Of a DNA stretch of 64,000 nt, positions 13,130 to 23,169 are shown piece by piece (the first letter of the stretch is position 1; the number at the start of each line of letters is the position of its first letter). This stretch comes from Dongiaceae bacterium (GTDB lineage Bacteria > Pseudomonadota > Alphaproteobacteria > SHNJ01): NCBI GenBank assembly GCA_050182275.1, contig JBFXCK010000001.1:128096-192095 (forward strand), in the 5' to 3' direction. Under the pieces are notes generated by a model. The model was not told the origin of the DNA. It saw only the letters and a list, made by a program, of their open reading frames with translations, and made no database searches. A program made the translations under genes and the position numbers.

Positions 13130-13621
13130 ATGGCGATTAATTGGGCTGATCCTTCGATTTGGGTAGCTTTGGCGATTGTGGTGTTCATTATCGCCGTTTG
13201 GCGCCCGGTTGGCCGTTCAATTTTAACCACGCTCGATAGCCATGCGGCGCAAGTGGCCAAGGCGTTACAAGAAGCCGAACAATTGCGCCATCAGGCCGAA
13301 TCCCTGTTAAGCGATGCGCAAAGCAAATATGCCGCCGCCACTTTGCAGGCCCAGGATATGGTGGCCCAAGCCAAACTTGAAGCCGACCGTTTGGCCAAGG
13401 ACAATGAGCGGGAATTAAATGCGAGTTTGGAACGCCGCGAACGCCAGGCGGTTGAGCGCATCGCCCGTGCCGAAAGCCAGGCTTTAACCGAGATGAAAAC
13501 CATGGCGGTTGATTTGGCTGTAACGGCAGCCAAGCGCATCATGCGCGATTCTTTGGATGCCAAAAAATCGGCCGATGTGATCGACCGCGCCATTCAAGAT
13601 TTGCCGAAGAGATTGAATTAA
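13130..13621 (+). CDS. atpF: F0F1 ATP synthase subunit b.
   Basis: N-terminal transmembrane segment plus a coiled-coil, immediately after the b' gene. Confidence 0.8.
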   Translation: MAINWADPSIWVALAIVVFIIAVWRPVGRSILTTLDSHAAQVAKALQEAEQLRHQAESLLSDAQSKYAAATLQAQDMVAQAKLEADRLAKDNERELNASLERRERQAVERIARAESQALTEMKTMAVDLAVTAAKRIMRDSLDAKKSADVIDRAIQDLPKRLN

Positions 13622-14226
13622 GCCGCTAATAATTTAAACGCCGCATTTAGCTGCGTCATGCGTTCATGGTCGCCGCATTCGCCGTCCGGATGGAACAGCT
13701 TCGCTAAATTCAAATATTTTTCCTTAATTATCTTGGCGCTGGGCATCGCATCGGGGGGAAAGCCCAGCACATACAGCGCCTCTCTGCGGTTTTTAATGCC
13801 CTTAGGCAAAGGGGTGAAAGCCAGCGCGTTGATAATGACCGGCGATAGGGGCGGGAATTTAGTTTTATTTTCTTCTTGAACAAGCCACCAGTTCAGGATT
13901 TTTTTGGCGTCTTCCGCATTCATGGGCAGAGGCAGGCGCAACTGCAAGCGGGGCTTGCGTAATAATCGCCGCCCCTTATTCTTGCCTGATTTGATGGTTA
14001 CACTTTCCCGCTCTTCAATTTCTTCTTCGATTGCGGGCAAGGCGGCGATGGCTGCGGGCGTTAATATCAATAAGCCAGCCCGCACCAATTCGGCAGCATT
14101 TACTTGTTTTTTATGGCAAAAGGCATTGATACGGGAAAAGAAGTTTTCAGAACAAGATACGGTCAAGGCAGGCGCAGACCTTGTCTTGTTAATATTGATT
14201 AACTTTGATTTTTGATAAAATCCCAA
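13618..14226 (-). CDS. J-domain (DnaJ-like) protein with a C-terminal J domain and an N-terminal basic stretch.
   Basis: C-terminal LGFPPDAMPSAKIIKEKYLNLAKLFHPDGE..LNAAFKLL matches a J domain, including the HPD motif. The upstream basic stretch is KSGKNKGRRLLRKPRLQLR. The start codon is uncertain. Confidence 0.6.
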   Translation of the reverse strand: MGFYQKSKLININKTRSAPALTVSCSENFFSRINAFCHKKQVNAAELVRAGLLILTPAAIAALPAIEEEIEERESVTIKSGKNKGRRLLRKPRLQLRLPLPMNAEDAKKILNWWLVQEENKTKFPPLSPVIINALAFTPLPKGIKNRREALYVLGFPPDAMPSAKIIKEKYLNLAKLFHPDGECGDHERMTQLNAAFKLLAA

Positions 14227-14304: not shown

Positions 14305-15297
14305 ATGAGCCAAAGTCAGTTAACGCCGTTAACGGCAATTGATGAAATTAAAAATCTGCTGGATTTTTTACGCCGGCATACAGATTTTTTACTAGCTGCC
14401 GATTTTTTGGAGCGAAGGCTAACCATGAACGGTGCTATCGAGGCTTATTTCAATCGTGCCAGCCATTTGTTACGCCGTTATGTTTTTGAATTTAATGCTT
14501 CCCCTTCAATAGAAATCTTTATAGCACCAGAATTTAACATAGCGCGTTTGCGCTATCAACCAGGACTATTTGGAAAGGTAAGAAAGGAAAAACCCAAAAG
14601 CACATTAATAAATTTAAAGCGCGCAATCCGCTATTTGCGTTTAGTGAGAGCTCTACAAAATAAACCCCGTGATTCTTTAATTATAGAGAAGCCTGATGAA
14701 ATACTTTCAGAGTTGGCGCGTTATTTGCCTTCAGCGGCTTTGCTTGCTCAGGTAGAAATCCATGGCGCAAAATTGGCAAGAGAGATTCAAAATGATTTAA
14801 AGGTCAATTTTAATCCACGCGAGCGTGCCGCCATAAGGCAGTTGATGCATAAATATCCCCCCGGGTCTACCATTCCTGCTTCAGCCAGCACTAATGAATG
14901 GTCGCCTTATCGCGGAACCGAACCCAAAATACATGATAAGGTTCCTTTTTATGAGTTTTGGCACGATCCTTTCAACCGGTCTTTGCATCGTCTTATTAAT
15001 GAACGTTATGGCGTGACGGGAACCGCAGTTGCTTTGCCTGAACATGCTTCTCAACCCTTTATTGAAGAAATTGCATCGGGAGACTGGAAAAAGGGAACAG
15101 AAAAGTTTTTTGATGTAGTTGCAGCCGCTCAGCAATTCTTTTCCAGCGGCGGCGTGCGTCCAGTTTATGTCCGCCCGCTGGATATGTCACAGCCTCAAGA
15201 TACAGAGGCGCCCCTAGCTGCGGAAGCTTTTGGATATAATACCGAAGCTTTAATAAGAGATAAAATTCAAAGAGCTGCCAATAGAGGCCGGGCTTAG
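14305..15297 (+). CDS. Hypothetical protein (330 aa) with no recognisable domain and AT-rich composition.
   Basis: Long ORF preceded by the RBS AGGTGGG. GC content is markedly lower than the flanking atp and gcvP genes. No motif I can name. Confidence 0.55.
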   Translation: MSQSQLTPLTAIDEIKNLLDFLRRHTDFLLAADFLERRLTMNGAIEAYFNRASHLLRRYVFEFNASPSIEIFIAPEFNIARLRYQPGLFGKVRKEKPKSTLINLKRAIRYLRLVRALQNKPRDSLIIEKPDEILSELARYLPSAALLAQVEIHGAKLAREIQNDLKVNFNPRERAAIRQLMHKYPPGSTIPASASTNEWSPYRGTEPKIHDKVPFYEFWHDPFNRSLHRLINERYGVTGTAVALPEHASQPFIEEIASGDWKKGTEKFFDVVAAAQQFFSSGGVRPVYVRPLDMSQPQDTEAPLAAEAFGYNTEALIRDKIQRAANRGRA

Positions 15298-16826
15298 GCC
15301 GGTTTCTTCCACCGCAAAACCGGCTGCCTTGCGGCCTGGGTTTCATCCAGGCGGCGGCGGGGCGTGTGATAAGGAGCGCCTTTGAAATAGGCGGGGCCGT
15401 CTTTTTTCAGGCGCTCGATTAATCCGCGCACCGAATTGATGAATTGATCGAGGGTGGCTTTGCTTTCGGTTTCGGTTGGTTCAATTAAAATAGCGCCCTG
15501 CACCACCAGCGGGAAATACATAGTCATGGGATGATAGCCTTCATCGATTAAGGCCTTGGCTAAATCCATGGTGCTAATGCCATGGGGAGTTAGGGTTTTA
15601 TCGCTGAACACCGCTTCATGCATGCAGGGGCCGGGATAGGGCGCTTCCAACACGTCTTTCAGGCTCGCCAATAAATAGTTCGCATTCAAAACCGCGTCCT
15701 CCGCCACTTGGCGCAGGCCATCGCTGCCGTGGCTTAGGCAATAGGCCATGGCGCGCACAAACATGCCCATCTGGCCGTGAAAGGCCTTAATGCGGCCAAA
15801 GGCGTTTTGCGCCGGGCCTTCCTTAACTTCAAGCGCGTTAAAATTATTTCCTTCATGAATAACCCAAGGCAAGGGCGCATAAGGCGCAAGCGCCTTGGAA
15901 AACACCACAGGCCCTGAACCCGGCCCGCCGCCGCCATGGGGGGTTGAGCAGGTTTTGTGCAAATTGATATGCATGCAATCAATGCCCAAATCGCCCGGCT
16001 TCACGCGGCCGATCAGGGCGTTATAATTGGCGCCGTCGCAATAAAAATAACCGCCGGCATCGTGAATTAATTTGGCGATTTCAATAATATCGCGCTCGAA
16101 CAAACCGCAGGTGTTGGGATTGGTCAGCATGATGGCGGCGACATCGGGCCCCAGCTTTGCCTTGAACGCCATCATATCAACCCGGCCATCATTGGTTTGG
16201 GGAAAGGAATCAACCGTAAAGCCGCAAGCGGCTGCGGTTGCGGGATTGGTGCCGTGCGCGGCCTCGGGCACCAAAACGCGGTTGCGCTTTTCGCCTTTGG
16301 CTTCTAAGGCAGCTCTGATCGCCATCATGCCGCAAGCCTCGCCATGCGCGCCGGCGGCAGGGCTCATGGCGACCGCCGGCATGCCGGTTAAAGTTTTCAA
16401 CCAATGCGCCAGCATATCGATCAATTCAAAGGCGCCCTGCACCGTGCTTTGCGGCTGCAGCGGATGGATATCGCCAAATCCCGGCAGGCGCGCCATTTTT
16501 TCATTCAGGCGCGGATTATGTTTCATGCTGCAGGAACCAAGCGGGAAAAACCCGGTATCAATGCCATAATTTTTTTGGCTAAGCCGCGTATAATGGCGCA
16601 CCACTTCGGGTTCGCTCAAGCTGGGCAGGCCAATCTTGGCCCGCGGGCTTAATTTGCCGATTTTTTTGGTTGCAGTGGCGGGCTTTGGCAAATCAACGCC
16701 AATACGGCCCGGATCATCCAATTCAAAAATCAATTTCTCTTCGATCATCAGGCCGCGATTGCCCGAAATGGTGCTGGCGGCGGATTCGATGGCTTCAGGC
16801 TTGGTGGCGCGGTTTTCTTTAAACAT
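15294..16826 (-). CDS. gcvPB: Glycine dehydrogenase (decarboxylating) subunit 2.
   Basis: PLP-dependent P-protein C-terminal half (e.g. HINLHKTCSTPHGGGGPG). 510 aa. Overlaps gcvPA by 1 nt. Confidence 0.95.
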   Translation of the reverse strand: MFKENRATKPEAIESAASTISGNRGLMIEEKLIFELDDPGRIGVDLPKPATATKKIGKLSPRAKIGLPSLSEPEVVRHYTRLSQKNYGIDTGFFPLGSCSMKHNPRLNEKMARLPGFGDIHPLQPQSTVQGAFELIDMLAHWLKTLTGMPAVAMSPAAGAHGEACGMMAIRAALEAKGEKRNRVLVPEAAHGTNPATAAACGFTVDSFPQTNDGRVDMMAFKAKLGPDVAAIMLTNPNTCGLFERDIIEIAKLIHDAGGYFYCDGANYNALIGRVKPGDLGIDCMHINLHKTCSTPHGGGGPGSGPVVFSKALAPYAPLPWVIHEGNNFNALEVKEGPAQNAFGRIKAFHGQMGMFVRAMAYCLSHGSDGLRQVAEDAVLNANYLLASLKDVLEAPYPGPCMHEAVFSDKTLTPHGISTMDLAKALIDEGYHPMTMYFPLVVQGAILIEPTETESKATLDQFINSVRGLIERLKKDGPAYFKGAPYHTPRRRLDETQAARQPVLRWKKPA

Positions 16827-18163
16827 TAAAGCGCCCCCAAAGCTTTGGCCAAAGCATCCATATCGGCCTCGGACGTGGTTTCGGTTGCGGCGATCAGCAA
16901 TAAATTATCCAATTTTTGCTTAGGCAGCAGGCGGGATACCGGCACTCCCCCTAAGATTTTTTTCTTGGCCAGCTCCTCGACAATTTGCGCTGCCGGTTTG
17001 TTTAATTCGACCGTAAATTCATTGAAAAAAGTTTCATTCAAAACTTTAACGCCTTTAACAGCGCTTAATTTTTCCGCCAGCTGCACCGCCTTCGAATGAT
17101 TTAGGGCTGCCAATTGTTTTAAGCCTTCCTCACCCAGCAAGCTGGCATGAATGGTGAAGGCCAAAGCGCACAGGCCGGAATTGGTGCAAATATTGCTGGT
17201 GGCTTTTTCGCGGCGGATATGTTGTTCGCGCGTGGAAAGGGTTAAAACATAACCGCGCTTGCCTTCGGCATCCACCGTTTGCCCGCAAAGACGGCCCGGC
17301 ATTTGGCGCACATCTTTTTCACGGGCGGCGAATAAGCCCACATAGGGGCCGCCGAAATTAAGGCCATTACCAATGCTTTGGCCTTCGGCGGCGACAATAT
17401 CAGCACCCATTTCACCGGGCGGGGGAAGGAGTCCCAGTGAAATAATCTCCGTCACCACCACAATCAATTTCGCGCCTACCTCATGGCAGGATTTGGCAAG
17501 GGCTGTGTAATCCGTCACATTGCCAAAGAAATCGGGATATTGAACAACCACGCATGAAACATGTTCATCGACAATTGTTTCCAAACCTTCAGCGCCTTGG
17601 GGAGAGGCAGGCAGGGTTTTAACCGTAAAGCCCTGAAACAGGGCATGGGTCTCCACCACTTCGCGGTAATGCGGATGAAGCCGGCCGGAAAGTAGCGCGC
17701 ATTTACGGCCCGTAATGCGGTTGGCCATCATTACCGCCTCAGCCGTTGCGGTTGAGCCGTCGTAAAGCGAAGCGTTAGCCACTTCCATGCCGGTGATCAG
17801 CGCCACTTGGGTTTGGAATTCAAATAAATATTGCAAGGTGCCTTGCGCGATTTCCGGCTGATAGGGTGTGTAGGAAGTTAAAAATTCCCCGCGCTGAATT
17901 AAATGATCGACGCTGGCCGGCACATGGTGGCGATAGGCGCCAGCGCCGCAGAAAAAGGGCACGGAACCGGCGGCAATGTTTTTATCAGCCAGCCCGCGCA
18001 AAATTCTTTCAACTTCTAATTCGCCTTGATATGCTGGCAAATTAACATTTTTTGAAAGTACGGCCGCCTTTGGCACATCTTTAAATAATTCATCAACGTG
18101 GCTCACGCCGATTTTTTGCAGCATGGTTTTGCGGTCATTGACGGTTAGCGGCAGGTAGCGCAT
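16826..18163 (-). CDS. gcvPA: Glycine dehydrogenase (decarboxylating) subunit 1.
   Basis: P-protein N-terminal half. 445 aa. Confidence 0.95.
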
Positions 18164-18165
18164 GG

Positions 18166-18543
18166 TTAGCCGCTCATACCTTTGACATAGGCCAAATATT
18201 CAGCCTCGCTCATTAAATTATTAAGCTCGGCATTATCATTGGCGCGCAGTTTGAAAAACCACCCAGCGCCCGTAGGATCGCGGTTAATTTGCCCGGGGTC
18301 TTGCGATAAGGAGTTATTAATTTCAATCACCTCGCCGCTAATGGGGGCGTACACTTCACTGGCGGCCTTGACCGATTCCACCACAGCCGCTTCGCCGAAT
18401 TGTTTTAATTTTTTTCCCATGGCGGGCAAATCGGTGAACACCACATCGCCCAATTGCTTTTGCGCGTAATCGGAAATACCAACAATCGCGGTTTCGCCGT
18501 CTAACTTAACCCATTCATGCTGTTTGGTGAATTTGAGAGCCAT
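18166..18543 (-). CDS. gcvH: Glycine cleavage system H protein.
   Basis: Lipoyl-lysine motif region [11 protein letters not shown]. 125 aa. Confidence 0.95.
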
Positions 18544-18622
18544 TTTTTTCTCCTTGAAAATGGGATTTTAGCCCAAAGATTCAAGGAAGGAAAATAAATA
18601 GTGGATTTAAGAGCTGAAGCTT

Positions 18623-20047
18623 TTAGCGCCCGTTCGTATTCTGAGGGGGCTGAATTACAGGGTTTCTTCGGGCTTCTATATCCTCCCTAAATCCGGCCTT
18701 GGCGATAAATTGATCGGCCGTGGAACAGCGTTGCCACCGTGCTGGCAGCAAACGCCGCCATTCTTGCCAGGCCCGTTCCCGTTTGCCGGGATTATAGCAA
18801 TCATATTCAAGATTACTATAAGGCATGGGCGGTCTTACAGTTACTTGGCCATTAATCTCTATCCGGCCCTGATTAATTTCTTCTAAATACCATTCAGCCG
18901 CCAATTTTGCGTTAGGGAGAGGAATACCATCACCATATCCCCGAATTTGCACTTGAGAGATTTGTATGCGTCCATCCTTGTCAGTTGCACGATACTCAAT
19001 CGTAGCAATCGAATCACCATCAGCATTTCGAATAGAAATAATATGCCGGTCTTCCATACAAAGCCGGGCATAGCCGCCTACACAATGTTTTAAACGTTGG
19101 CCTTCCTCGCGTAACATGGAAGGGGTGGTAAGAGGATATAATACTAGGCCCGTTCCAGGATGAATGGTTTTTTCCGATAAGGGTGGCCATTCTGCCGCTT
19201 GAAAATCAGAAATTTTTGCCAGCATGGCGTCAGAGCGTGCGTGCCAATCACGGCTTGTGGCAAGTATTTCAACAATATTCCGGCCTTCAAAAGGGATCGA
19301 AGTCCAATTGCTGTTGCGCATGATGCCAGAAGGAAAACATTGTCCTACATTTAAAGCACCGTAAAAAGGGGCGACAACCTGTCGGGAAAAACTTCCGCAT
19401 ACATCGCCAGCACTTTGTAGCGCGTTACTATGATTTTGTTTATCTTGGGGTAATTGCTCCCTTGCTTCTTGCCAATTTTCAATCCCTGTTATTAACGAGG
19501 TAGTTAAAGGAACACTTCTTTCGGATTTTGAAGATTCAATTGCAGTGCCCACCATATCAATAAAAGCAGCGCATTCTTGAACAGTAGCAGAGGAAAATCC
19601 TGGCACTTGGTTTGGATTAAGCCGTCCAATCAATCCCCAAAATTCTAGAGATTGAACAACAGAATGCGGCTTATACCACTGCATATTTAGGGCAATTCTT
19701 TCAGGAACATAGCGTCCTATTTTAGCAATAGTCGATAATCCATGGGGGCTTAATTGGTGTTTGGCTGAGGTAAGAGTACGGGCAATTTCTTTTCCTATAT
19801 CGTCTTTTGTATCAATCGGATCCCGAAGGCCTTTAAAATTTCCATAAATCACTTCCAAGCAAAGCAACGGAAATTCTTCAGCAAAGGCAACTCGACGATC
19901 TAGCCTCTTTTTTAATTCTCTGCCAAAAAATGCGCCTGATAAAAAACCAGGGCCTAAAACATCTTTTAGTGCCTTACGACGGTTCGATAATAATTGTTTT
20001 TTGCTAACCGGAGATAAATTGGTTGCTTGCACGATCTTCACCCTCAA
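18623..20047 (-). CDS. Hypothetical 474-aa protein inserted between gcvH and gcvT, with a C-terminal region resembling a PcfJ-like domain (tentative).
   Basis: Low-GC ORF. The C-terminal stretch contains LREEGQRLKHCVGGYARLCMEDRHIISIRNADGDSIATIE..QVQIRGYGDG. I recall the EG..M.HCV..Y pattern from PcfJ-like (PF14284) proteins of plasmids and phages, but I cannot verify this without an HMM search. Confidence 0.55.
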   Translation of the reverse strand: MRVKIVQATNLSPVSKKQLLSNRRKALKDVLGPGFLSGAFFGRELKKRLDRRVAFAEEFPLLCLEVIYGNFKGLRDPIDTKDDIGKEIARTLTSAKHQLSPHGLSTIAKIGRYVPERIALNMQWYKPHSVVQSLEFWGLIGRLNPNQVPGFSSATVQECAAFIDMVGTAIESSKSERSVPLTTSLITGIENWQEAREQLPQDKQNHSNALQSAGDVCGSFSRQVVAPFYGALNVGQCFPSGIMRNSNWTSIPFEGRNIVEILATSRDWHARSDAMLAKISDFQAAEWPPLSEKTIHPGTGLVLYPLTTPSMLREEGQRLKHCVGGYARLCMEDRHIISIRNADGDSIATIEYRATDKDGRIQISQVQIRGYGDGIPLPNAKLAAEWYLEEINQGRIEINGQVTVRPPMPYSNLEYDCYNPGKRERAWQEWRRLLPARWQRCSTADQFIAKAGFREDIEARRNPVIQPPQNTNGR

Positions 20048-20113
20048 TCCTTGTAATTTTTTTGTATATTAAAAGGATAGGGCCTTAAGTCAACCGCTTA
20101 TATATTAACTTTT

Positions 20114-21217
20114 TTAGGCAGCCCGGTAATAACGGTGCGGCGTGAAGGGTAAATCGACTACCCGGGCGGGCAGGGATTGGCCGCGGACTTTTAAGAATAA
20201 TAATGTTCCTACCACAGCCAAATCGCGTTGCACATAGCCCATGGATATGGCGGCATTAACCGTAGGTCCAAAGGAGCCGCTGGTGACATAGCCCACCACC
20301 TCCTCATTGCCATCGACAATTTCTGTGCCTTCCCGGGCCATAGCTCTGCCATCTAATTTCAGGCCCACACGCAACATAGGGGCACCTTGGGCTAATTCCG
20401 CCAAGATTTTGTCAGCGCCCAAAAACCCGCCTTCCAATTTGCGGCGTTTATTGATGACCCAGGCCAAATTTGCCGCAACCGGCGAGGTTGATTCTTTAAT
20501 ATCGTGGCCATAGAGGCAAAGGCCTGCTTCCAGGCGCAATGTATCGCGTGCGCCAAGGCCGATGGGTGCAACACCTGGCTGGTTTAATAATAACCGGGCG
20601 ATTTTTTCGGCAGCTTCATTGGGAATTGATAATTCAAATCCATCTTCCCCCGTATAGCCGGAGCGCGATAGCCAAATTTCAACACCTTCTAATTTCGCTT
20701 TGGCGGTATACATAAATTTAAGCGCGGATATTCCGGGAATTAATTTTTCTAAAATCTTCGCAGCTTCGGGTCCCTGCAGGGCGATGAGGCTGCGGTTTGG
20801 CAATTCTTCGATCTTAATTGAGGAGGGAAGGTGCGCGCGTAAATGTTTAGCATCTTGTTCCTTGCAGGCGGCATTTACGACTAAAAATAAATGATCGCCT
20901 TGATTGGCCACCATTAAATCATCCAAAATTCCGCCGGCCTCTAGCGTAAAAAGTGTATAGCGCTGTTGATTCGGCTTTAAGATTTGAATATCACCTGGCA
21001 CCAATTTTTCCAATTCCGCCGCTACATTCCCGCCCCGCAAAATAATTTGGCCCATATGCGATACATCGAATAAGCCCGCATGCTGGCGCACCTGATTATG
21101 CTCGGCGATAATTCCCATCGGATAGGAAACCGGCATTTCATAACCGGCGAAAGGCACCATCTTGGCGCCCTTCTCCAGATGTAAATTATAAAGCGCGGTT
21201 TTCTTCAAATCGCTCAT
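20114..21217 (-). CDS. gcvT: Glycine cleavage system aminomethyltransferase T.
   Basis: N-terminal signature LYNLHLEKGAKMVPFAGYEMPVSY. 367 aa. Confidence 0.95.
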   Translation of the reverse strand: MSDLKKTALYNLHLEKGAKMVPFAGYEMPVSYPMGIIAEHNQVRQHAGLFDVSHMGQIILRGGNVAAELEKLVPGDIQILKPNQQRYTLFTLEAGGILDDLMVANQGDHLFLVVNAACKEQDAKHLRAHLPSSIKIEELPNRSLIALQGPEAAKILEKLIPGISALKFMYTAKAKLEGVEIWLSRSGYTGEDGFELSIPNEAAEKIARLLLNQPGVAPIGLGARDTLRLEAGLCLYGHDIKESTSPVAANLAWVINKRRKLEGGFLGADKILAELAQGAPMLRVGLKLDGRAMAREGTEIVDGNEEVVGYVTSGSFGPTVNAAISMGYVQRDLAVVGTLLFLKVRGQSLPARVVDLPFTPHRYYRAA

Positions 21218-21220
21218 GGC

Positions 21221-21916
21221 CTAAGGGATAAGCTTTGGTTTTTCAAGCGGCGCTACGGATGCGGGCGCTGGCTTGGGCGCAGGTGCTGGTTTTTTAACCG
21301 GCTTTTTCAAAACCTTCTTTTTTGGTTTGGGTAATTCGGGTTTTGCTTCCGGCGGCTTTTCTTCTGGCGCGGGTTCGGCTGCAGGCGCCGGCTGTTCAAT
21401 AACGGGCGGCGGAACAGGTTCGGGCGCAGGCGGCAAGGGCTGGAAGCCAACTAAAATTTGCTGACCTTCGGTGCTTTGACCAAGCGGAATAGGAAGACGG
21501 ATAGTGACTTCATCTTTAATCAAGCCGGCAGTGGCCGCGCCATTTTTAGTATGAACATCGAAAATTTGCTTATTGGTGATATTTTTTTCATTAATAGTGG
21601 CGATAAAATAGGAAAAAGACTGATCAACCGAAGAATCGCTGCCGGAGAGGGGGGTGAAAATGATATTGACCTTCAATTCAATATCAATGCCTTTGGGATC
21701 AAGCGCGCAATTGCCCTCTAATAATTTGATTTGGGCTTTCCAGCCGTTTTGCTCCTGCTCATTTAGGTTTTTAACTATTAAAGCGCTGGGGCATCCCCGG
21801 GCGTCAACCGGTTTTTCTTCCTTCTTGTCCGAAAAATAGCTGCAATTGGCAAGGGCGAAAAGGCTTAAAACCACTATCAAAAACCGGCATGTCGTCATAA
21901 AATCAACCATGGGCAA
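21221..21916 (-). CDS. Probable lipoprotein with a Pro/Lys-rich C-terminal tail.
   Basis: Signal peptide ending LFALANC, which is lipobox-like. C-terminal tail PAPEPVPPPVIEQPAPAAEPAPEEKPPEAKPELPKPKKKVLKKPVKKPAPAPKPAPA. Its stop lies 3 nt upstream of the gcvT start. Confidence 0.55.
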   Translation of the reverse strand: MPMVDFMTTCRFLIVVLSLFALANCSYFSDKKEEKPVDARGCPSALIVKNLNEQEQNGWKAQIKLLEGNCALDPKGIDIELKVNIIFTPLSGSDSSVDQSFSYFIATINEKNITNKQIFDVHTKNGAATAGLIKDEVTIRLPIPLGQSTEGQQILVGFQPLPPAPEPVPPPVIEQPAPAAEPAPEEKPPEAKPELPKPKKKVLKKPVKKPAPAPKPAPASVAPLEKPKLIP

Positions 21917-21973
21917 AAGGGGAAAAATCCGCTAGAAGAGCAATAGCCAAGTACCATAGCAACAACGGCAGAT

Positions 21974-22927
21974 ATGAGCAAATCGAAGAATAATTTGAAA
22001 ATCCTCCTTGCATCCCCGCGTGGTTTTTGTGCCGGGGTTGATAGGGCCGTGGCTATCGTGGAAGAAGCCTTAAAAAAATTCGGCGCGCCGGTATATGTGC
22101 GCCATGATATTGTCCATAACGGGTATGTGGTTAACGATTTGCGTCAAAAAGGCGCCGTTTTTGTCGAGGAATTGGCCGATATTCCGCCGGGCTTTCCGGT
22201 GATTTTTTCGGCCCATGGCGTTGCTAAGGAAGTGGTGACCGAGGCCGAAGACCGCCATATGATCCACATCGACGCCACTTGCCCCTTAGTCAGCAAAGTA
22301 CACCGCGAGGCCGAGCGTTATCACGCCCTTGGCTATCATATCCTGTTGATCGGGCATCAAGGCCACCCCGAAGTCATTGGCACGATGGGGCAATTGCCCA
22401 AGGGCGCGGTCACGCTGATTCAAACCTTGGAAGATGCCAAGGCGGTTAAAGCGGATGGAAATTTGGCTTATGTCACGCAAACCACTTTATCGGTCGATGA
22501 TACGGCAGAGATAGTGGCGTATTTAAAAATGCGCTTTCCGAATATTCAAGGCCCGCGGCGCGATGATATTTGTTACGCCACCACCAACCGTCAGGCGGCG
22601 GTCAAGGCGATTGCGGGACAAGTCGATATGTTATTTGTGCTGGGTGCGCCGCATTCCTCGAATTCACTGCGATTGGTCGAGGTGGCGCAATTGGCGGGCT
22701 GTCAAAAGGCGCTATTAATTGAACGGGCCGGCGATATCAACTGGGTGGAAGTTCAGGAAATCCAAACTCTTGGCATCACCGCCAGCGCCTCGGCGCCCGA
22801 AATATTGGTTGAGGAAGTGATTGCCGCTTGCCGTTCGCGCTTTGAAGCAGTGGTTGAGGAAGTCAGATTGAAAGAAGAAAACGTCACTTTCAAACTGCCG
22901 CCAATTCTTGCGGAAAATGCCGCATGA
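21974..22927 (+). CDS. ispH: 4-hydroxy-3-methylbut-2-enyl diphosphate reductase.
   Basis: [15 protein letters not shown]-terminus with conserved Cys. 317 aa. Confidence 0.95.
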
Positions 22928-23169
22928 AAGACGCCACTTTCCGCAACGAACATCAGCTGCAAAGTTTTTTGGTCGATTACCATGTCGGCCCTGCCCTTGC
23001 CATTGAAAATTTTCCCGGCGGATTCCGCATTGAAACCATGACCGGGCGCTATCGTGTGTTGATTGATCCCGATATTTCTTTAACCCAAGTGCAGGTCGTG
23101 CCGACTTTTGCCGGATTGGTTCAGGGAAAATTCGGCAACAAACCGGCCTTGTTGATTAAAGATGAGTAA
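22924..23169 (+). CDS. Small hypothetical protein (81 aa) between ispH and rnhA.
   Basis: ATGA overlap with the ispH stop and an 8-nt overlap with the rnhA start. Same strand and composition as its neighbours. No recognisable motif. Confidence 0.35.

Follow-up and report, generated by a model that had tools for sequence, protein, structure and literature searches.

We analyzed a 64,000-nucleotide stretch of DNA (the window) from the metagenome-assembled genome (MAG) of a Dongiaceae bacterium, contig JBFXCK010000001.1. In its glycine-cleavage (gcv) operon, the genes gcvT and gcvH are separated by an additional open reading frame (ORF) at window positions 18623..20047 on the minus strand. The original observation proved accurate, and its interpretation is supported. 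We propose, with a probability of about 60%, that this ORF is a single gene of the long-form PcfJ type that was acquired horizontally, placed in the gcvT–gcvH spacer of a Dongiaceae-like alphaproteobacterium, and kept intact there. It adds one member to a family that is known but uncharacterised; its place is unusual but explicable, and its arrival is a fairly ordinary gene transfer in an uncultured bacterium of soil or water.

The inserted gene and its place in the gcv operon

In the six-frame ORF list, the inserted ORF is uninterrupted and encodes 474 amino acids from a TTG codon at 20047. In the public gene model, translation begins at the GTG of position 20032, 15 nt further on, and yields 469 amino acids. 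An exact public protein match exists for the shorter form and none for the 474-residue form, since the public record uses the GTG start. Upstream of the insert lies gcvT (20114..21217, minus strand), whose match to NCBIfam NF010093 scores 530.5 bits (cutoff, 459). Downstream, likewise on the minus strand, lie gcvH (18166..18543), gcvPA (16826..18163), and gcvPB (15294..16826), each of which also passes its NCBIfam cutoff, and the ancestral order gcvT-gcvH-gcvPA-gcvPB is retained. As the original prediction had described, the inserted ORF has the orientation of its neighbors and is separated from them by short gaps on the minus strand: 66 nt on the gcvT side (20048..20113; 81 nt when counted from the GTG start) and 79 nt on the gcvH side (18544..18622).

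The composition of the ORF bears out the expectation of a low-GC, foreign gene. Its GC content is 0.444, and the GC content at third codon positions (GC3) is 0.343, which corresponds to z = −4.9 relative to the 58 other ORFs of the window (mean 0.562, standard deviation 0.044). The codon-usage distance of the inserted ORF, 1.32, is exceeded only by that of ORF330 (1.34), a second ORF described below, and the other scored genes fall between 0.48 and 1.12.

An abrupt drop in GC within a sequence taken from a MAG could also be produced by a chimeric contig or a mis-assembly that joins unrelated DNA. However, Logan contigs from the sequencing runs SRR27751816 and SRR27751815, which were assembled independently, are 100% identical to the window over 17535–21202 and span both junctions, covering gcvT, the ORF, gcvH, and gcvPA, and the order of the flanking operon is otherwise exactly ancestral. 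Since two independent contigs reproduce the junctions, the arrangement is not a MAG chimera. We therefore rejected an assembly artefact, whose probability is now minute.

The position of the ORF was compared with other gcv loci. Eighty genome loci and 80 metagenome loci were fetched around GcvT relatives, and gcvT is followed by gcvH on the same strand in 64 and 63 of them, respectively. In these 127 comparison loci the gcvT–gcvH spacer measures 7–234 nt, compared with 1570 nt in the window, and none of them holds a gene or a relative of the inserted ORF within the spacer. The assumption that gcvT and gcvH are normally contiguous is thus upheld. The wider synteny, consisting of a divergent ispH, a small lipoprotein gene, and gcvT-H-PA-PB, is common to Thalassospira and other Rhodospirillales-like loci. 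It is therefore the insertion that is the derived state. The nearest GcvT in the genome and metagenome collections is only 60% identical to that of the window, and a relative with an empty site was found in neither collection. In view of this distance, the insertion cannot be dated.

The gaps on either side of the insert may explain how it is tolerated. Neither contains a terminator-like hairpin, and gcvH keeps an AAGGAG Shine-Dalgarno sequence 7 nt before its ATG, within the insert/gcvH gap, which makes read-through probable. The inserted gene would be transcribed by read-through from the operon promoter, perhaps with a contribution from an AT-rich, promoter-like site brought along with it. 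A candidate for the latter is TTGACT-16-TAATAT at 20093..20066 in the gcvT/insert gap, although such sites are no commoner than in shuffled sequence. Co-transcription of the inserted ORF with the gcv genes is therefore best regarded as plausible on sequence grounds. With gcvH translated from its own Shine-Dalgarno sequence, gcvH, gcvPA, and gcvPB would stay expressed, and such a non-polar insertion would account for the tolerance of a foreign gene inside the gcv operon.

The PcfJ family and the settings of its members

The PcfJ-like domain suggested in the original prediction is supported by Pfam. PF14284 (PcfJ) matches residues 299–356 of the 474-residue form (18980..19153, minus strand; profile positions 64–124 of 147) with 32.3 bits (E = 1.1e-7), which exceeds the gathering score, 25. 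The motif sequence quoted in that prediction is present exactly as it was given, with its HCVGGY element at 19070..19087 on the minus strand. The family takes its name from PcfJ of the Enterococcus faecalis plasmid pCF10. The identical protein at NCBI is entitled "MAG: PcfJ domain-containing protein [Dongiaceae bacterium]", and its precomputed Pfam assignment agrees with ours. The domain assignment is thus already part of the public annotation and is not new.

The ORF had also been described as an orphan, and this description does not hold. Word-indexed homologue searches with the inserted protein returned only 4 and then 10 matches. An exhaustive hidden Markov model (HMM) search was run over 1.84 billion cluster representatives (50% identity) with a query profile, A1, of 621 positions built from four sequences. 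It gave 8,902 relatives at E ≤ 1e-3, of which 2,036 remain at E ≤ 1e-10 and 100 at E ≤ 1e-30. Many of them have 550–800 amino acids and align from about position 176 to about position 558 of A1, so that they share a helical region as well as the PcfJ core. Among the relatives are a 54-member cluster of 600-residue "PcfJ domain-containing proteins" in Pseudomonas aeruginosa and proteins from P. putida and Thalassospira that are annotated as hypothetical. Of the full-length relatives, P0002 is the closest, with 25% identity to the window protein, and no protein between 30% and 100% identity was found among 5.8 billion.

Other collections add little about function. The inserted protein has no match in NCBIfam or PADLOC, and every one of its PHROG matches is labeled "unknown function". 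A tblastn search against 50,697 phage records gave no match, and the PDB holds no relative by sequence, whether the single protein or the family profile is used as the query.

The settings in which relatives occur are those of mobile DNA. By tblastn, relatives are present in 25 plasmid records. On Skermanella pTT6-1 the relative adjoins IS6, ISL3, and IS21 transposases; on a 176-kb P. aeruginosa plasmid it belongs to a block of hypothetical genes that also contains DNA methyltransferase and DEAD-box helicase genes; and a Bosea megaplasmid matches the family in five places. Another relative lies near a DNA methylase gene. The metagenomic locus L089:2965-12529 carries four tandem PcfJ genes (795, 694, 767, and 842 amino acids), two of them with N-terminal ankyrin repeats. 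Genes for a phage-type integrase and for a DNA polymerase of family A (PolA) lie no more than about 5 kb away, and the locus has the appearance of a mobile island that bears an array of paralogues. A RecQ helicase gene directly follows one long-form PcfJ gene and overlaps its stop codon (L087:3159-7339), and a DEAD/DEAH-box helicase lies 2 kb downstream of the long-form gene on a P. aeruginosa plasmid (L085:6891-12416). These are only two unrelated contexts, and the proximity of a helicase may be a coincidence. No gcv genes were found near any relative examined.

Some relatives carry repeat modules in addition to the PcfJ core. In a scan of the eight longest, leucine-rich repeats (LRRs) were present in four and ankyrin repeats in one. 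One LRR-containing relative is labeled RanGAP-like by IMG because of these repeats. P0002 (L003:1-14737) is situated among a dozen genes without a Pfam match, beside a giant RTX/BapA-like protein whose length exceeds 1,800 amino acids. PcfJ-like domains have also been reported upstream of the variable regions of diversity-generating retroelements (DGRs) (PMC5758913).

Predicted structure and possible activity

A model of the C-terminal 229 residues, based on 103 aligned sequences, has a predicted local distance difference test score (pLDDT) above 90 in its core. The AlphaFold model of the full-length protein, based on 78 long-form relatives, reaches a mean pLDDT of 83.8 and a predicted template modeling score (pTM) of 0.80. 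In this model, residues 8–274 of the 469-residue form (19211..20011, minus strand) are predicted to be all-helical. They are followed by an α/β PcfJ core of the order β-α-α-β-β-β-α at residues 297–387 (18872..19144, minus strand), with pLDDT mostly above 90; this compact core is predicted to be complete around the stretch matched by PF14284. The C-terminal helices at residues 415–456 (18665..18790, minus strand) are also confidently predicted, and only A421 and P430 among their residues pass the conservation filter.

The conserved residues of the family are largely retained. Within HCVGGY, C317 is invariant in the family, and H316 and Y321 are nearly so. The window protein keeps the core residues E310, G311, H316, C317, V318, Y321, C325, S333, R335, T344, E346, Q362, and G365, as well as the N-terminal family residues R47, P55, P144, W187, D210, W263, H264, and W282.

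The topology of the predicted core is that of the N-terminal half of the GNAT fold (β1-α1-α2-β2-β3-β4-α3), with HCVGGY located in the α1–α2 loop. The best structural matches of the core in the PDB are GNAT-fold proteins, aligned over about 90–100 residues at 3–14% identity. At the position of GNAT motif A (Q/R-x-x-G-x-G/A), the window protein has QIRGYG. This fit is confined to the window protein, since the PcfJ-family consensus at the same junction is Q..G..N..P rather than Q/R..G.G/A. In addition, the conserved His-Cys pair of the PcfJ family occupies the α1–α2 loop, where the catalytic residues of GNAT enzymes are not known to lie.

Several observations weigh against our proposal, some of them against an intact transferred gene and others against a GNAT-like enzyme. 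The original prediction had suggested cargo of a mobile element, and this suggestion fits the settings of the relatives, which are found on plasmids and integrase-bearing islands. At the window locus, no integrase or transposase was found within about 10 kb, as had been noted originally, nor was any relaxase, tRNA, or flanking repeat. A repeat search at the insert borders revealed no convincing inverted repeats or target duplication, only short, low-identity repeats that look like chance. The terminal inverted repeats, target-site duplication, and recombinase typical of an insertion sequence (IS) element, transposon, or cassette are thus all lacking at the insert. The window protein corresponds to positions 166–598 of profile A1, so that the roughly 165 residues by which many relatives are extended at the N-terminus are missing from it, and its residue 368, a nearly invariant Asn in the family, is Asp; both features are compatible with decay. 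With regard to the fold, Foldseek comparisons with GNAT-fold structures gave no match at E ≤ 1e-3, and the template modeling scores were about 0.40–0.45 when normalised to the target. The β5-α4-β6 half, which GNAT proteins need for a complete acetyl-CoA site, is absent from the predicted models, in which a loop and unrelated helices follow the core. An hhalign comparison of a PcfJ-core profile (96 sequences) with a GNAT profile gave a probability of 0.4%, against 0.1% for the reversed control; this is a weak negative, as the GNAT profile was thin, with four putative GNAT sequences gathered from the fetched loci by iterative tblastn seeded with E. coli RimI. Finally, our literature search found no biochemical, genetic, or functional study of any PcfJ protein. 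Because the β5-α4-β6 half, the motif A consensus, and an hhalign signal are all missing, we report a resemblance of the PcfJ core to GNAT proteins and not membership among them, and even this fold-level resemblance, derived from models, is weak.

It is possible, though unlikely, that the gene is an inert passenger or a relic. It could have entered a permissive spacer by illegitimate recombination, or be the last remnant of a larger element, and would persist without benefit to the host since the insertion is non-polar. The lack of a recombinase, inverted repeat, or target duplication beside the insert fits this case, and the missing first 165 or so positions of A1 and the change of N368 to Asp point in the same direction, as does the divergence of an N-terminal motif, "F..LD.NWL". 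Moreover, the gap between 30% and 100% identity in the protein collections gives no indication that the gene has spread or been conserved in sister lineages. Conversely, the ORF has remained uninterrupted over 1.4 kb of AT-rich DNA, in which stop codons arise easily, the remaining core residues are all retained, and the model is confident. The length of family members also varies widely, and some have only 280–470 amino acids. The open frame, together with the confidently predicted fold, argues against advanced decay of the inserted gene.

If the gene has been kept intact, as we propose, its product is probably an enzyme, in which the helical N-terminal region would pack on a compact α/β core that resembles half a GNAT fold, the N-terminal one, in shape. 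The invariant or near-invariant residues E310, H316-C317, Y321, C325, S333, R335, T344, E346, and Q362 would form a putative active or metal site centered on His and Cys. Since close relatives carry LRR or ankyrin fusions N-terminal to the core, and since the family travels on mobile elements, we infer that the protein would act on another cell or element by modifying one of its proteins or other macromolecules, an activity of the anti-defence or effector type and not one in glycine metabolism. Our best guess, which we put forward tentatively and hold to be less likely than not, is a His/Cys-centered enzyme on a GNAT-like scaffold that is directed to a macromolecular target by the helical region (joined in relatives by LRR or ankyrin repeats) and takes part in the conflicts of mobile elements with cells.

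The repeat fusions also lend indirect support to the secreted effector considered in the original prediction. Such an effector might enter the cells of a eukaryotic host such as a protist, and its PcfJ core would modify one of the proteins there. The RanGAP-like label of one relative and the location of P0002 in a block of Pfam-unmatched genes beside an RTX-type protein are in line with this idea. However, the window protein itself has neither LRR or ankyrin repeats nor a recognizable signal peptide, and no secretion-system genes are present within the window. The named relatives come from free-living Pseudomonas and Thalassospira and from Bosea and Skermanella plasmids, and repeat fusions are also common in proteins of conflict between bacteria, phages, and plasmids. 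We consider that this explanation has only a slim chance of being correct.

The gene might also have been recruited to glycine cleavage and encode, for instance, an enzyme that transfers acyl or lipoyl groups to GcvH. In favor of such a role are its location directly upstream of gcvH and the conserved Cys in a core whose GNAT-like fold resembles that of acyltransferases. The octanoyl and lipoyl transferases that are known have the LplA/LipB/BirA fold, which is absent among the fold matches of the core. The composition of the gene is foreign, none of the 127 other gcv loci holds such a gene, and no examined relative lies near gcv genes. A link to GcvH lipoylation was set aside, as no other genome co-locates the two, and recruitment of the gene to glycine cleavage is very improbable.

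Neighboring features and comparison with known systems

The gcv operon of the window has undergone further changes. In all 13 related loci scanned, a glycine riboswitch lies directly upstream of gcvT, and in nine of them it is tandem (e.g., L004:6719-6927, L006:3903-4112, and L015:6736-6926). No match to the glycine riboswitch model RF00504 was found at the gathering score in the 64-kb window, nor at E ≤ 10 in 18000–22500, which takes in the corresponding interval upstream of gcvT (21218–21973). To judge from the sequence, the operon of the window has lost this riboswitch. A lipoprotein-like ORF (21221..21916, minus strand) ends 3 nt before the ATG of gcvT and is a weak homologue of an ORF in one of the related loci (L004:6042-6614; E = 5e-5). 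It has an extra Pro/Lys-rich tail of about 70 amino acids (21221–21440, minus strand), located where the relatives have the riboswitch.

On the other side of the operon, ORF330 (14305..15297, plus strand; 330 amino acids) also has an unusual composition, with a GC3 of 0.353 (z = −4.7) and the largest codon-usage distance of the window. It is convergent with gcvPB, the stop codons of the two genes overlapping by 4 nt, and gcvH-gcvPA-gcvPB thus lie between ORF330 and the PcfJ gene. Searches with ORF330 gave no match in Pfam, NCBIfam, PHROGs, PADLOC, or the plasmid and phage collections, and one chance-level match in the PDB (E = 0.15). ORF330 was considered as a partner gene of the inserted PcfJ ORF and rejected, as no homologue and no co-occurrence with PcfJ relatives was found. 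Between ORF330 and the gene of the ATP synthase b subunit there is a 202-residue ORF of native composition (13618–14226, minus strand), with a J-domain-like stretch at its C-terminus (Pfam DnaJ, 24.7 bits, below the cutoff of 27.8) and a weak match to PHROG 9210.

The genes around the insert locus include SMC, ATP synthase F0 genes, ispH, rnhA, and genes for a solute-binding protein, DsbD, and AlgH. An 81-residue ORF without a Pfam match (22924–23169, plus strand) lies between ispH and rnhA and overlaps both by a few bases.

The stakes of the locus itself are small: it offers a clean, in principle datable foreign gene that is lodged in a core operon without disrupting it and shows no trace of its vehicle. 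The wider value lies in the family, as plasmids, phages, and islands commonly carry PcfJ-like domains, yet none has been characterized. The confident model with its GNAT-like core, the invariant residues E310, H316, C317, Y321, C325, S333, T344, and Q362, and the recurrent LRR/ankyrin fusions provide hypotheses for tractable homologues such as WP_034061855.1. A bolder proposal, to which we give a small chance, is that the PcfJ core is a divergent "half-GNAT" with a His-Cys center, an acyl transferase or a hydrolase with a thioester intermediate. It would be aimed at proteins by swappable helical, LRR, ankyrin, or DGR-diversified modules, and the present copy would have been captured under a metabolic operon without a glycine riboswitch.

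Compared with the PF14284 PcfJ-like family as a whole, the window protein shares the core motif L..EG..(M/L).HCVGGY ... I.S.R ... T.E ... Q..G and, like the family, is uncharacterized. It differs in its architecture, as the 92 PcfJ-core relatives recovered are mostly short (about 100–300 amino acids), whereas the window protein has a helical N-terminal region of 270 amino acids. It also differs in its setting, because the family is usually found on mobile DNA and the window gene lies in a chromosomal housekeeping operon without mobile-element genes nearby.

The closest likeness is to the long-form PcfJ proteins, such as the 600-residue WP_034061855.1 of a P. aeruginosa plasmid and those of Skermanella, Bosea, and Thalassospira, which have a helical N-terminal region followed by the PcfJ core and align with the window protein over most of its length. 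They are, however, only 20–31% identical to it, many are about 100–250 amino acids longer owing to an N-terminal extension, and they occur in plasmid or IS-rich contexts.

By analogy only, some PcfJ relatives resemble IpaH/SspH, in which LRRs are combined with a Cys-dependent NEL ligase, as LRR or ankyrin repeats at their N-terminus precede a domain in which one Cys is invariant. The NEL domain of IpaH/SspH is an all-helical, Cys-dependent ligase, and its fold is unlike that of the PcfJ core. The window protein is also free of repeats, and the comparison with IpaH/SspH concerns the arrangement of the domains and does not imply homology.

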